Positions 12,472 through 16,625 of a stretch of 52,961 nucleotides of DNA are shown piece after piece; position 1 is the first letter of the stretch; each line of letters opens with the position of its first letter. The notes under the pieces were generated by a model. That model worked only from the letters and a program-made list of their open reading frames with translations. It was not told the DNA's origin and ran no database searches. Source of the stretch: a virus (taxonomy: Duplodnaviria; Heunggongvirae; Uroviricota; Caudoviricetes); IMG/VR virus record IMGVR_UViG_3300025769_000070; one strand, given 5' to 3'. The position numbers were made by a program, and so were the translations under genes.

Positions 12472-13114
12472 TTCCTTGATTAAATTCTTCAGATTTATTG
12501 ATATAAGAAGAAGCGTTTATAAAAGTAATCCCGTCACGATCTAGCCTACCGTAATTATAACAGTCTGGCTCGTCGTGAATATGTCCAAAGGCATGAATCA
12601 TTGGTTTAATTTCAAGCACTTTATTCATCAGGCTTTTACATCCAGAGTGGATATATCGTTTTCTTTTATTCTTGTCCTCACAAACATCAAGAATTCCTTT
12701 TGGAGGACCATGAGTAACTAGAATGTCACATTTAGGAACAGAATCCCATACTACCTGCATCCTGTTATGTTTCTTCATATAAGCCCAGTTATTCCCATAC
12801 GTAGGAGTATACGGAGATCCAAAAATTATAAGACCTTCTATACTGGTTGCTTCATGTATTAAGAACTTTACATTTGGGTAATTTTCACGCCTGATTAATC
12901 CTGCTTCTATCGCAGTAGAATGATTTCCCGGAACAAAGATCTTGTGTTCAACATCAAGTTTTGAAAACCATTCAAAAAATTTGTGAGATTCCCCTTCATT
13001 TATATGTGGGTTCTTATGATTAGACTCATCACCACAACAAATGATTACGTCAGTATTTGGGACGTATATTTTTTCGTGATTACCGTGAGTATCACTTATA
13101 AAAAAAAGATCCAT
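12455..13114 (-). CDS. calcineurin-like metallophosphoesterase
   Basis: ISDTHG, GD, GNH, THGPP, GHIH. Confidence 0.9.
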   Translation of the reverse strand: MDLFFISDTHGNHEKIYVPNTDVIICCGDESNHKNPHINEGESHKFFEWFSKLDVEHKIFVPGNHSTAIEAGLIRRENYPNVKFLIHEATSIEGLIIFGSPYTPTYGNNWAYMKKHNRMQVVWDSVPKCDILVTHGPPKGILDVCEDKNKRKRYIHSGCKSLMNKVLEIKPMIHAFGHIHDEPDCYNYGRLDRDGITFINASSYINKSEEFNQGIEYEY

Positions 13115-13288
13115 AGTATTCTTTTATAATAGGAGTATGATAATTATTATGAGTAATTCTATATTTATTAAAATTTTCTCTATTAAAATCATAATCTAGT
13201 ATTTTATCATTAATACTAAAAAATAAATCAACTATAACATTATCTATTTTCGACATTAAAAATTCTCATTTCTGGTAAAAGAGAAAGG

Positions 13289-13546
13289 CTATCTTCTGTA
13301 GCCATAGGGGATTGCCAAGTATTCTTGGTGGGAGAACTCCGGATTGACAAGGGGAAGATTATTATCCTCATAATATTTCCGGATAGCCTTCTCTCTGCAT
13401 TCCCGACAAGCCACCTTTAAATGCCGGACGGCATACCTATTCACTAACATGTCCGCCTCAGTGTACTTATTTACATAACATCTAGGACAAATATCCATTG
13501 TACGCAATTCGAACCAAACAAGTGAGAATTGATAGTTTCTAAACAC
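13289..13546 (-). CDS. hypothetical protein with two CxxC motifs
   Basis: CPRC and CREC; the true start may be the ATG of MDICPRC. Confidence 0.5.
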   Translation of the reverse strand: MFRNYQFSLVWFELRTMDICPRCYVNKYTEADMLVNRYAVRHLKVACRECREKAIRKYYEDNNLPLVNPEFSHQEYLAIPYGYRR

Positions 13547-13626
13547 AGTACTCTCTGTATGTCACCCCTGCCTTTATCTTTTACAAGAAAAATTACATTG
13601 TCAAGGAAGCCGACTAGGCTGACGCC

Positions 13627-13666
13627 ATTTGTCTTGGTAAACGAAGTTTACATAAACAAGACAAAT
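13627..13666. repeat. inverted repeat / hairpin
   Basis: ATTTGTCTTG-GTAAAC-GAA-GTTTAC-(ATAAA bulge)-CAAGACAAAT: 16 perfectly paired bases. Confidence 0.7.
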
Positions 13667-14027
13667 ACCCACGGTAGTGTCCATTATTTAAAACTTAAAA
13701 AAAGTAAGATAGTGGAAACGGAATCCGTGCAGAGGAAAAACACTAAAACTAAAAGACCAGCAGAGTTCTTTGTATCGGAAATTTCGCTCCGGAGTCAGCT
13801 AGAGTGGCGTTTTTCTGCTGTCTCAACGGGAGACTCTGTAAGCTGGGAGACGCCGAACCAGCCGTTCTGTTAGTATAGCTCAGTTTTGCCAAAAAAGTTA
13901 GGATTTTTTAGAAAAATTGTTCGACTTGGCGGATATAGTCTGCTAAACTTCCTCAGATGACGACTGCCGCCAAGAGATCGGGTTTCGAAAGAATGTGTCT
14001 GCGAAAGCAGAGAAGGTGGACGCAGTG

Positions 14028-14120
14028 GCATAACGCCCCGGCAATAACCGGGCACGAAAGGTTGACGATGACTACACAAGCGAGCGGGCAGAGTGCTCCG
14101 AGTTCATTGCCTTGTTCTAC
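14028..14120 (-). mobile_element. integron attC-like site 1 (93 bp)
   Basis: Minus strand: R'' GTAGAAC, 5-nt spacer, L'' AATGAACT with an unpaired 4th base, stem CGG(A)GCAC, loop, L' GGTTATT, R' GTTATGC. Confidence 0.75.
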
Positions 14121-14377
14121 GTCTTCGCCGGATCGCGGGCGATTGCCGGATTCGGTTTCCGACTTGAACTGGCAGGAGCACCGCCCAGGAACTGGGTACT
14201 ACGACAACGACATACTATTGGCCGCAGTGCCCGTGAACGGCTCAACGGGTTGGGCGTATGAACTGGCTGTGATTTCTGCGGTATTCAACGGCGATTATTT
14301 GGACTGGTACTGCAACGGTGAGTTGTGGGAATGGGCGATCGACGATGCTGAGTTCGTTGTGAGGATTTGACGTAGAA
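14034..14377 (-). mobile_element. integron-type gene cassette 1 (ORF antisense to attC)
   Basis: ORF body flanked by a perfect 10-bp inverted pair GTTCTACGTC (14114-14123) / GACGTAGAAC (14369-14378), as expected for one cassette's R''/R' cores. Confidence 0.7.
14068..14370 (+). CDS. cassette-borne hypothetical protein (100 aa)
   Basis: ATG 14068 follows GAAAGG inside the attC1 loop. The stop abuts the attC2 core. Confidence 0.65.
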   Translation: MTTQASGQSAPSSLPCSTSSPDRGRLPDSVSDLNWQEHRPGTGYYDNDILLAAVPVNGSTGWAYELAVISAVFNGDYLDWYCNGELWEWAIDDAEFVVRI

Positions 14378-14462
14378 CGCCCCACATCACCCGGTTGCGG
14401 CGGGTGACTTGGATTTCTAATTCCGCGTTCGACCGCAACTCGGGTGCATGTGTTTGTTCTTT
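14372..14462 (-). mobile_element. integron attC-like site 2 (91 bp)
   Basis: Minus strand: R'' AAAGAAC, spacer AAACA, L'' CAT(G)CACC, CG(A)GTTGCGG stem / CCGCAACCG, L' GGTGATG, 6-nt spacer, R' GTTCTAC; two extrahelical bases. Confidence 0.85.
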
Positions 14463-14727
14463 TGGTGTACTGATGGCACGTGGCATTTCATTGTCAGAAG
14501 CGATTGATGCGTCTGAGGCTGATTGGCAGTCGAAGCATGGGAAGTGCATGCTGTGCGAGGGCGGTCCGCCAAACGACAGCGGGCAACACTGTTACGATGG
14601 ACACATTTCAGATTGCCCGAACGTGCGGGAGCCGTGCGGGCTGTGTCACGGCTGTCTGCCGCCGGGGGAGATTTGCCGAGGCTGTAATCGGATGAACCCG
14701 TACGCATACCAGTGCTGACCAAAAGAA
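14378..14727 (-). mobile_element. integron-type gene cassette 2 (ORF antisense to attC)
   Basis: ORF body flanked by a perfect 11-bp inverted pair GTTCTTTTGGT (14456-14466) / ACCAAAAGAAC (14718-14728). Confidence 0.72.
14395..14718 (+). CDS. cassette-borne Cys-rich (putative Zn-binding) protein; start uncertain
   Basis: CMLC, CGLC, CRGC motifs. The stop abuts the attC3 core. The start could be TTG/GTG within attC2 or a downstream ATG. Confidence 0.6.
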   Translation: MRRVTWISNSAFDRNSGACVCSFGVLMARGISLSEAIDASEADWQSKHGKCMLCEGGPPNDSGQHCYDGHISDCPNVREPCGLCHGCLPPGEICRGCNRMNPYAYQC

Positions 14728-14812
14728 CGTTTAAGGTAAACGGGTTGCCGGAAAGGGTTTTCAATGTCAGATTCAGCGTCGTCGGCAACTCCGGTTGACC
14801 GACTGGTTATGC
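14722..14812 (-). mobile_element. integron attC-like site 3 (91 bp)
   Basis: Minus strand: R'' GCATAAC, spacer CAGTC, L'' GGT(C)AACC, G(A)GTTGCCG stem, L' GTTTACC, 6-nt spacer, R' GTTCTTT. The extrahelical bases read G and T on the plus (bottom) strand, as in canonical attC. Confidence 0.82.
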
Positions 14813-15150
14813 CGCGTGTAGGCATCTATTTGGTGAGTCGAACGAGTTGCTGGGAAGGTCAGCCATGCGACGAAGCCTACGAAGTAGAAATGATAAAGGT
14901 TGATCGTCGTACTGTTGACGACCCGAAGAAGATACCAGTCAACAACGGAACGGACGGAGATTGGTACGAACGTGGAACAAATCATCGAATAGAAGACGGA
15001 AAAATCTGCCGTGATCTTGGGTTTTATAGTAGATGGGCGGTTCAGGTTAATGACATTATGGATTTTGTAGACGATCACGGCTGTTGCGTGGTAAGCCGTG
15101 ACAGCGAAGGATTCGCGACTATTGAGATCTATGACGATTATCGAGAGTAG
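14764..15150 (+). CDS. phage-type hypothetical protein starting inside attC3
   Basis: GAAAGG then ATG 14764 in the attC3 loop; acidic C-terminus IEIYDDYRE. Confidence 0.75.
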   Translation: MSDSASSATPVDRLVMPRVGIYLVSRTSCWEGQPCDEAYEVEMIKVDRRTVDDPKKIPVNNGTDGDWYERGTNHRIEDGKICRDLGFYSRWAVQVNDIMDFVDDHGCCVVSRDSEGFATIEIYDDYRE

Positions 15151-15216
15151 CAGATATAAACATGGTAATTTCAAACGACGATTATCCGTCACTCAAGTTT
15201 ACTAAAGGTAAGCCAG

Positions 15217-15513
15217 ATGTCTTGGAAACGTTTTGCTGTCAGAATTGTAAGATATCTGTTTCCGTGGATGGTAATTGAGCATCCCGTAATGAGTTTGACT
15301 GAGTTCAATCAAATGGAGCTTTGGCGGTGGTGTATGCCGGAAGAGTTTTCGTTTGGACAGTCGGGCTTAGAAGACACATTACAGCCTATACCTCCACGTT
15401 TCAGGAAATGCAACCGGGATTTAGATGTAGCGGCGAGAACACATCGACTTCGCGTTCAAATTGCGTTGTTGCGGAAACAGATGGGATGTCCACCGATTTA
15501 TTGGAAAAATTAG
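15217..15513 (+). CDS. hypothetical protein
   Basis: 98-aa ORF. Confidence 0.5.
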   Translation: MSWKRFAVRIVRYLFPWMVIEHPVMSLTEFNQMELWRWCMPEEFSFGQSGLEDTLQPIPPRFRKCNRDLDVAARTHRLRVQIALLRKQMGCPPIYWKN

Positions 15514-15636
15514 TTATGAAAATTAAAACTTTTATAATGAAGCTGAAGTGACTAAGTTGGGGGGATAAACTGAATGAGTTTCTAGGTTCCAGATGAGGAA
15601 AAAATGAGTACAGGCGAATATAAGAATTGAGGTTTT

Positions 15637-15879
15637 ATGGACAATAAATCAAAATTAAATTATGCAGTTGATTGGTTTACTAATCTATCTTCAAAACAGC
15701 AATCTGAAGTAGTACGTGAATTATTTCATCATGCAATCACTTCCGAATGGATTAATGTTTGGAGTTTAGAAGACCGGAAAGAAATGGTTGAAGATGAAGG
15801 ATTTAGCCAAGCAGAGGTCGATGCTCCTTATTTTACAACATGTGGTGAACCACTAGTTTCATTAGATGAGAGTAATTAA
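15637..15879 (+). CDS. hypothetical protein
   Basis: 80-aa ORF with GAGG RBS. Confidence 0.6.
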   Translation: MDNKSKLNYAVDWFTNLSSKQQSEVVRELFHHAITSEWINVWSLEDRKEMVEDEGFSQAEVDAPYFTTCGEPLVSLDESN

Positions 15880-16096
15880 AGTTATGAATAATGAAGATTT
15901 CTTAGCTGAAAAAGAAAAAAGAATACAGTTGTACATAGAACGTGCATCAAGAGAATGTGACCTGTTCAGTGGAGAACCTATCAAGAAAGAGGTGAAACTA
16001 AATAAAGAAGAAATTTCATGGCTAAAAAGCATTGGACTTAAGTAATCTTGACAAAATTTTGAGAATTCACCGCACTCTAACCGAAAGCAGGATATA

Positions 16097-16330
16097 ATGA
16101 GGACAGAAGAAAAATCGGAGTACTTGAACTTGATTTTTGAGTTACTTGGTAATCCAAATCAAGAACTGAAGTCTGCATTAGGACTTATTAAAACTCAGAA
16201 CTTAGTATATTTAGCTAAGTCAGTATCCGATCTTCTAGGCAAAGAAATGCCTGAATTTCCAACACGCACTCAAGTGCAAAGATCAAGATTATCTTTTTTA
16301 GAAACAGGACAAACAGATGAATCAGACTAA
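16097..16330 (+). CDS. hypothetical protein
   Basis: 77-aa ORF overlapping the next start. Confidence 0.55.
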   Translation: MRTEEKSEYLNLIFELLGNPNQELKSALGLIKTQNLVYLAKSVSDLLGKEMPEFPTRTQVQRSRLSFLETGQTDESD

Positions 16331-16625
16331 ATTTATTGAGGAACTATCATTAGTTTCTAACAGCTACTCTTGGACTCATAATGGGACAAGTTTGTTGGGG
16401 GTTGCAAAAAACGGACATGACCGTGGAGCAATCTTTAATCCTGTCACAGCACTTGCCCGATCTAAACGTCTTGGTTCCTTCCAGAATACTTCTCAAGGAA
16501 CTAAGAATGCCGCTAAGGCTTTGGGTCTATCCAGTATTACTTTGGCATCTGTTCTATCTTCTGAGAATCGCGGAAACGCTCAAGTTGTTAGGGGTAGAAT
16601 GTTGAACAAACTCGGAGTCTCATGA
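16317..16625 (+). CDS. conserved-looking phage hypothetical protein
   Basis: 102-aa ORF, coupled junctions. Confidence 0.65.
   Translation: MNQTKFIEELSLVSNSYSWTHNGTSLLGVAKNGHDRGAIFNPVTALARSKRLGSFQNTSQGTKNAAKALGLSSITLASVLSSENRGNAQVVRGRMLNKLGVS

Follow-up and report, generated by a model that had tools for sequence, protein, structure and literature searches.

The stretch analysed here is the last 53 kb of a 142,148-base IMG/VR phage record (IMGVR_UViG_3300025769_000070), which is estimated to be 94% complete; these 52,961 nucleotides (nt) are called the window, and coordinates refer to the window unless a contig is named. A scan of base composition along the window reveals an island at 14001-15000 with a G+C content (GC) of 54-55%, compared with ~35% in the surrounding sequence, at the point where the phage genes switch from leftward to rightward. 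The island contains three sites of the attC type, the recombination site of integron cassettes, designated S1, S2 and S3, each with an open reading frame (ORF1, ORF2 and ORF3) 3' of it on the same strand. All three sites lie on the + strand within 790 nt (14027-14813), they are the only attC-type sites in the 142-kb record, and neither the integron integrase IntI nor any other tyrosine recombinase was found anywhere in that record. At least two closely spaced attC sites with no intI nearby constitute a cluster of attC sites lacking an integron integrase (CALIN), and the island is such a cluster. The orientation of its cassettes, and the position of their start codons relative to the sites, are the subject of this analysis.

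S1 (14027-14123, +) opens with the 5' core GGCATAAC (14027-14034), in which the predicted crossover AA|C falls at 14033|14034, and closes with the 3' core GTTCTACGTC (14114-14123). In its 16-bp stem, 14040-14055 pairs with 14093-14111, leaving three single-base bulges, T14097, A14101 and C14105, all on the 3' arm, and its loop carries the Shine-Dalgarno (SD)-like motif GAAAGG (14056-14061), followed after 6 nt by an ATG at 14068. S2 (14369-14465, +) extends from the 5' core GACGTAGAAC (14369-14378; predicted crossover AA|C at 14377|14378) to the 3' core GTTCTTTTGG (14456-14465), and its long stem has the bulges A14432, T14440 and C14447 on the 3' arm and a loop without ATG. In S3 (14719-14813, +), the 5' core CCAAAAGAAC (14719-14728; predicted crossover AA|C at 14727|14728) and the 3' core GTTATGCC (14806-14813) enclose an L-box stem (14735-14749 paired with 14783-14800) with the bulges T14790 and G14797 on the 3' arm, and in the loop GAAAGG (14751-14756) precedes the ATG at 14764 by 7 nt. 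A first-pass annotation, made from the letters of this DNA alone, had placed the unpaired bases in the plus-strand 3' arm and GAAAGG 6-7 nt ahead of an ATG in sites 1 and 3; the coordinates bear out both statements. The sites measure ~90 nt from core to core, as against 57-141 nt for attC sites, and each has an R box formed by pairing of the AAC and GTT triplets, an unpaired central spacer and an L box. Moreover, neighbouring cores mirror each other: the S1 3' core (14114-14123) is the exact reverse complement of the S2 5' core (14369-14378), and the S2 3' core (14456-14465) is that of the S3 5' core (14719-14728), at 10/10 nt in both cases.

ORF1 (14068-14370, +, 100 amino acids), ORF2 (14473-14718, +, 81 amino acids, cysteine-rich) and ORF3 (14764-15150, +, 128 amino acids) have no assigned function, and searches of Pfam and PHROGs returned none. 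If the loop ATGs are used, the first ~19 codons of ORF1 would come from the loop and 3' arm of S1 and the first ~17 codons of ORF3 from the loop and 3' arm of S3, and both N-termini then read as the first-pass annotation had quoted them, encoded by the recombination stem itself. The predicted start of ORF2, an ATG at 14473, lies 8 nt past the 3' core of S2. ORF3 represents a widespread phage protein family, marked by the invariant motifs RTS, GTNHR and, at the C-terminal end, IEIYDDYRE.

The three sites belong to a hairpin family that is found on many viral contigs. Full-length alignment of nine sites gave a consensus fold in which a 5-bp R box and an unpaired spacer are followed by helical segments of 5, 6 and 7 bp, the first two separated by a bulge and the last two by a bulged T, and finally by a loop of ~34 nt, with compensatory changes in 12 of the 23 pairs, and the first covariance model built from this alignment returned 132 matches in 91 sources among viral contigs, several of which carry same-strand arrays of 7 to 14 or more sites. 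In 67 further sites, none of them from the window, 91.6% of the cells form a pair (33-41% in slid controls), and 18 of the 23 pairs show changes on both sides. Across these 67 sites AAC, GTT and the bulged T are each invariant (67/67); for the other, proximal bulge the counts are 43 C, 22 G and 2 T, the two bulges are spaced 6 bp apart, and the core consensus is [A/C][T/G]AAC. A second covariance model, built from the 67 sites, scored the window sites at 82.5 (S2), 62.3 (S3) and 57.8 bits (S1), with E values from 2e-20 to 1e-13, the latter for S1; all of these hits are on the + strand (S2 reaches 19.7 bits on the - strand), and the rest of the window has no comparable match. As the 67 sites had initially been gathered with a model that included the window sites, this test is partly independent only. 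An exact pattern scan of viral contigs yielded 120 stretches, a number to be read against a rough estimate that chance alone could give hundreds; only contigs confirmed by the covariance model were used. The boundary signature seen in the island recurs in the family: a mirror of at least 8 nt between neighbouring cores is present in 40 of 56 adjacent family pairs, compared with 2.2% of pairs taken from different loci, and an exact mirror between neighbours occurs on the unrelated 53% GC contig L003 as well.

The geometry of the hairpin identifies the strand that would be recombined. In the rule established for the attC bottom strand, R' contains 5'-AAC-3' and the arm facing it bears the extrahelical bases, which are spaced by 6 bp and of which the distal one is a conserved T (Nivina et al. 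2016, PMC5027507). In the present family it is the + strand that conforms, with the bulges on the arm opposite AAC, the T invariant and a 6-bp spacing; therefore, the + strand, which is also the coding strand, would be the bottom strand. That the genes lie on this strand could not be read from open-frame length, since this test split the strands 24 to 20 (24/44) and did not discriminate. The coding strand was thus argued from homology, Pfam matches and stop positions: homologues place 71 matches to ORF3, four to ORF1 and three to ORF2 on the + strand, DNA methyltransferases of the N6_N4 type lie on the site-sense strand in three other arrays, and in 18 of 43 cassettes the gene stop is the TAA of the next TAAC core. 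Accordingly, the island does not have the layout of a canonical cassette, in which the gene precedes its attC and runs in the direction of the top strand; its genes are on the predicted bottom strand, 3' of their own sites.

Natural variation among near-identical phages points to the same unit. Six contigs from different samples share 13000-14002 and 14726-16000 of the window at 98.6-98.9% identity (blastn), and the block between these breakpoints (14003-14725, +) is variable. In the window it consists of S1 with ORF1 and S2 with ORF2; at the same locus, L054 and L055 carry a site A1 with a Cys-rich gene and then a site A2 with another gene, and L058 carries A1 with the same gene and then a site A3 with a third gene. 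S3 and ORF3 follow the variable block in all of these contigs, and the right edge of the swapped block is at AA|C on the 5' side of S3. The bases at this edge read CCAAAAGAA|C in the window, GCAGATAA|C on L054 and GCCGTATAA|C on L058, and all three mirror, in reverse complement, the 3' core of the site that comes before S3. Furthermore, the pair S1 and ORF1 recurs with different neighbours on two other contigs, L198 and L197; on the latter an MT-A70 gene precedes it and the site that follows is another one. Because the S3 flank varies with the upstream cassette and S1 with ORF1 moves as a unit, the mobile unit would consist of a site followed by its gene, and crossing over would take place at AA|C of the + strand. 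This is the inverted arrangement that the first-pass annotation had proposed, in contrast to typical cassettes, which put the ORF upstream of its attC. An empty site was also sought in more distant relatives by means of the flanking phosphoesterase gene, and this search gave no matches.

Relatives elsewhere connect the family to the integron integrase. Three arrays of the same hairpin family end at attI and intI (L086/L188, L191/L192 and L195/L196). L086 and L188 represent one complete 39.8-kb phage with terminal repeats, in which the full integron occupies L188 2598-7693: nine same-strand sites, the end of the last cassette, GCCCTGCGAA|C, which mirrors that cassette's own 3' core, a short attI that begins CAACTTATTAG, and the intI gene on the same strand. 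The predicted integrase scores 282 bits on TIGR02249 (cut-off 265) and aligns, integron-specific insertion included, to VchIntIA (PDB 2A3V) with an E value of 7e-48. Two relatives of this integrase, P0079 (51% identity) and P0081 (46%), have the same layout; both came from the representative search, and the relatives search with the L086 IntI retrieved only the same phage and one unrelated recombinase. The L086/L188 phage also has a second tyrosine recombinase elsewhere in its genome. The phage-like contigs L195 and L196 are 99.6-100% identical except for one extra cassette in L196, a site followed by a DUF5131 gene, which is inserted exactly at the attI crossover CCCACGAA|CAACTTATTAG (6986-7947 in L196; 7944-7947 in L195), with its gene pointing to intI. 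In the relatives that carry intI, attI is found ~50 nt ahead of the intI start codon, with the cassettes on the far, upstream side of attI; the geometry of the platform is thus that of an ordinary integron, yet every cassette gene points towards intI. The cargo of the arrays on L104, L086, L003, L197 and L195 includes several DNA methyltransferases (N6_N4, MT-A70 and DNA_methylase), which fits an anti-restriction role for part of the pool.

The hairpin family with its covariation, the strand asymmetry, the boundary signature, the natural swaps and the link to IntI and attI in relatives are shown by the sequences themselves. Three independent lines (the bulge rule, the swaps and the attI/IntI link) agree in supporting the prediction that recombination uses the + coding strand and that a gene moves with its attC in front of it, and they equally support the first-pass assignment of the attC top strand to the minus strand, opposite the ORFs. 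We consider it likely that the island is a short, integrase-less cassette array (CALIN) in a large marine phage, drawn from a phage-associated attC family whose cassettes are built in reverse. In the mechanism that we propose, a cassette read along the coding strand would open with the C of AA|C, continue through the attC hairpin into the gene, and finish with a short tail and the cassette's own 3' core in reverse complement, ending in AA, so that the strand folding into the recombinogenic bottom-strand hairpin would be the sense strand of the gene. The recombinase would most likely be an integron integrase supplied in trans, either by a host or by another phage infecting the same cell, with the folded + strand as its substrate and AA|C as its crossover point. 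The genes would be read in the direction opposite to that of transcription from a normal cassette promoter (Pc), at the head of a rightward operon in this phage and towards intI in the relatives that carry it.

Several observations weigh against this interpretation. The phage has no integrase of its own, and a promoter scan of the + strand upstream of the cassettes detected no site above chance. When the sites are folded singly, S2 beats shuffled sequences (z -3.9 as DNA and -5.3 as RNA), whereas S1 and S3 are near z 0 and no better than shuffles; therefore, the case rests on comparative evidence. The S3 stem is weakened in this phage by A14740, which breaks one pair of the 6-bp stem between the bulges. 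Near-identical phages have C at this position (GGTAAACGGG here versus GGTAACCGGG in them), and the RNA fold of S3 has z -2.2 in those relatives and -0.3 here. The proximal bulge is G in S3 but C, not the usual G, in S1 and S2. The fit of the cores to RYYYAAC is partial as well (GCATAAC 6/7, GTAGAAC 5/7 and AAAGAAC 4/7), and the extended consensus beyond the invariant triplet is described as a tendency only (PMC5027507). Finally, the left junction of the variable block, 14002|14003, is at no attC core: it lies 31 nt upstream of the S1 crossover, right after GAAAGAATGTGTC, and part of the variation between phages may therefore stem from homologous rather than site-specific exchange.

This junction leads to the question of what moves the cassettes. 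They could be true cassettes mobilized by a Xer-like or another phage or host recombinase, or by homologous recombination through shared flanks. Besides the left junction, such a mover would suit the lack of tyrosine recombinases in the 142-kb phage, which is shared by the complete array-bearing phage G001, and the lack of an integron integrase in G010. However, the geometry of the sites matches IntI substrates point by point, three arrays of the same family end at attI and IntI, and IntI1 recombines attC sites borne by phages (PMC9892861). We therefore regard another mover as unlikely, and retain an integron integrase acting in trans as the probable agent.

The left edge of the island has further features of its own. 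The outer cores of the array, the S1 5' core (14027-14034) and the S3 3' core (14806-14813), are exact reverse complements (8/8). Such a match is expected if S1 with ORF1 and S2 with ORF2 were inserted into a resident S3 site, and the data fit this history; the leftmost flank of the relatives L054 and L058, ACGTGTAA, however, lacks the outer-core match. We also considered the island as a circularly permuted circle of three cassettes, a reading that was set aside because the two-cassette insertion into a resident S3 explains the outer cores more simply. Neither circular permutation nor insertion into S3 accounts for the junction 14002|14003. This junction lies within the segment 13957-14026 (+), which begins with an ATG at 13957; in the window (137 amino acids) as on L054 (123 amino acids), an ATG at this place shares the reading frame of the first cassette gene. 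The sequence from 13957 to 14033 could be a remnant of an older site or leader, or a breakpoint of homologous recombination.

If cassettes are inverted, the question arises of where their genes start. Among 95 family sites, 40 have a loop ATG that opens a frame of at least 45 codons, with an SD-like motif upstream in 32 of the 40, and in another 38 the gene starts just after the site; loop starts are one of two common layouts in the family and not a universal rule. This tally, which had been suggested at the outset as a check, qualifies the first-pass view of attC as a portable start module: the view would hold for one of the layouts, that of the loop ATGs, to which S1 and S3 belong. Leaders that begin in the loop share one frame and one motif (for example, MSTENA...APVDRLV) ahead of unrelated proteins, and the ORF3 leader (...ATPVDRLVMP) matches this generic leader of other family sites. 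For ORF1 and ORF3, comparison with homologues supports starts at the loop ATGs, 14068 and 14764, as inferred starts. The ORF1 homologues P0073 and P0074 begin at the same Met, and P0075, which lies outside any cassette, shares only the conserved core of ORF1, from PDR (PDRGRLPD) onward. The start of ORF2 had been called ambiguous; comparison now favours the ATG at 14473, just after S2, as the most likely start, as the S2 loop has no ATG and the homologue P0076 starts at the aligned Met, where conservation begins. Another ORF2 homologue, P0077 on L187, has its start inside the loop of the site to which it belongs.

It is also conceivable that the loop ATGs are unused, that translation starts downstream (ATG 14809 for ORF3) or upstream (ATG 13957 for ORF1), and that the leaders are a by-product of open frames in GC-rich DNA. 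Both of these ATGs are in frame, the upstream one running through S1 into ORF1 in this phage, and they count against loop initiation. Chance open frames are common at 55% GC, the open-frame test split the strands only 24 to 20, and ORF2 itself most likely starts past its site, as do genes at ~40% of the family. Against this, ORF1 has no in-frame ATG, GTG or TTG between 14068 and its conserved core, and on L197, which has a 75% identical homologue of ORF1, an in-frame TAA in the 5' core excludes upstream starts and makes the loop ATG the first possible one. For ORF3, the Met at 14809 is not conserved among homologues, and close homologues keep the residues encoded by the 3' arm before it, with synonymous differences relative to L003. 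Together with the SD-like motif in 32 of 40 loops and the leaders that share frame and motif across unrelated proteins, these results render unused loop ATGs improbable. In the favoured reading, initiation in the loop, the apical loop would supply an SD-like motif and an ATG in S1, S3 and approximately 40% of the family, and the 3' arm would encode a short generic leader of the type M-x-T-E-N ... A/T-P-V-D/E-x-L/I-V. Because these start signals lie in the attC loop, they would move with the gene, independently of the neighbouring cassette. The hairpin may also benefit translation.

Two observations concern the loops and the ORF3 family more widely. Loops that have no ATG share a motif of their own, GACGTTGATTTCAGAAAAC with variants, as on L133 (1270-1369), on L099 (7070-7168) and in the S2 loop (14404-14425); they resemble ATG loops in which TTG or TGG replaces ATG, and could be decayed starts or TTG starts. 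Members of the ORF3 family are encoded at 14764-15150 of the window, at L002 6001-6372, on L001 and at L003 329-700, and also outside cassettes; on a T4-like contig, for instance, such a gene lies between the two genes for ribonucleotide reductase. The N-terminus of the relatives outside cassettes still resembles the hairpin-encoded leader, as though fixation of cassettes had been followed by decay of their sites.

The position of the hairpins on the sense strand between genes, with SD and AUG kept accessible in the loop, and the terminator-like matches that a signal scan located inside S2 would also suit signals that act at the RNA level only, for example in termination, processing or the control of translation, and that play no part in DNA recombination. 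Such a role alone leaves unexplained the exact reverse-complement flanks of neighbouring sites, the precise gain of a cassette at attI beside an integron integrase, and the invariant AAC/GTT with its bulge geometry; an Rfam scan of 12500-16500 found nothing relevant, and no Rfam family matches the hairpins. We therefore judge it very unlikely, although an added RNA role beside recombination is possible. Least tenable of all is the ordinary orientation, in which + would be the top strand, each gene would precede its own attC and the crossover would be at G|TT in the 3' core: the inverted-repeat signature between neighbours is symmetric and fits both orientations within a single array, but S3 stays with ORF3 behind three unrelated genes (ORF2, ORFb and ORFc) and the variation stops at its 5' rather than its 3' core, S1 stays with ORF1 on L197 and L198 while the downstream site differs, the bulges lie opposite AAC on the + strand (PMC5027507), and in the extra cassette of L196, which entered attI at AA|C, the site precedes the gene.

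Downstream of the array, the sequence after the ORF3 stop (15151-15513) opens with CAGATATAAAC, a possible decayed 5' core. The next open reading frame (15217-15513) lies in sequence of 44% GC, between the values of the island and the phage, and could be an older, eroded cassette.

The arrangement proposed here, reversed cassettes that carry their attC ahead of the gene, differs from the known systems to which it may be compared. A canonical integron cassette is a promoterless gene followed by its attC, co-directional with the top strand and read from the single promoter Pc. Here, by contrast, the gene would be on the bottom strand, the attC lies ahead of the gene and often holds its start, and transcription would run towards intI. 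In the hyperplastic regions of T4-type phages, promoter-stem-loop (PeSL) cassettes place small accessory genes between repeated stem-loop modules that favour shuffling by homologous recombination. They resemble the present cassettes as phage accessory genes bounded by stem-loops, but they have neither the AAC/GTT crossover signature nor a link to an integrase. Some cassettes of chromosomal integrons that have their own promoters are inverted relative to Pc. Cassettes with own promoters, such as toxin-antitoxin cassettes, have been reviewed for chromosomal integrons (PMC8876359); they share with the present family an expression that is independent of Pc, but they are exceptions in normally oriented arrays, whereas here all family cassettes examined are reversed and the attC would supply the start signals. 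In the 'reverse' integrons of Treponema, transcription of intI runs towards attI, and the cassettes are found downstream of intI (PMC3607928). The likeness is that intI and the cassette genes have a common direction of transcription; the relatives described here differ in having attI upstream of the intI start, as in ordinary integrons, with the genes running towards intI.

Nivina et al. 2020 (PMC7439510) state that attC function depends on structure, so that a site can be embedded in virtually any sequence. Their synthetic embedded attC sites are compatible with an attC arm that encodes protein; there the sites are engineered, whereas here such arms appear to be natural and common to many unrelated genes. 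CALINs and a few integrons have been reported in phage genomes, along with recombination of phage attC sites by IntI1 (Qi, Rajabal, Ghaly, Tetu and Gillings 2023, PMC9892861). The likeness to those phage CALINs extends to attC arrays without intI and to DNA methyltransferase cargo; in that report we found neither bottom-strand genes nor attC-internal start codons mentioned. The literature searched yielded no account of a class of reversed cassettes, and blastn against GenBank phages gave no match at the DNA level for the island or for the L099 array.

In a wider proposal, which we favour only by a small margin, phages keep an integron lineage of their own, with a distinct IntI clade, the attI core CAACTTATTAG and the present attC family. 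Reversed cassettes would make the hairpin a portable start module with a generic leader, and phages with and without an integrase would trade accessory and anti-defence genes that are silent from a bacterial Pc.

In summary, our analysis describes a whole family of cassettes that appears to run opposite to the usual description of integrons, that is tied to true integron integrases in phages and that is swapped between near-identical phages. Such cassettes would provide a route for the exchange of small accessory genes among phages, including those without any integrase, and may represent cases in nature in which a recombination site doubles as a carrier of translation signals and of protein-coding sequence. 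Such arrays may be misread or missed by integron surveys that presume the usual gene orientation, and the sites and integrases identified here make the reversed-cassette idea directly testable.

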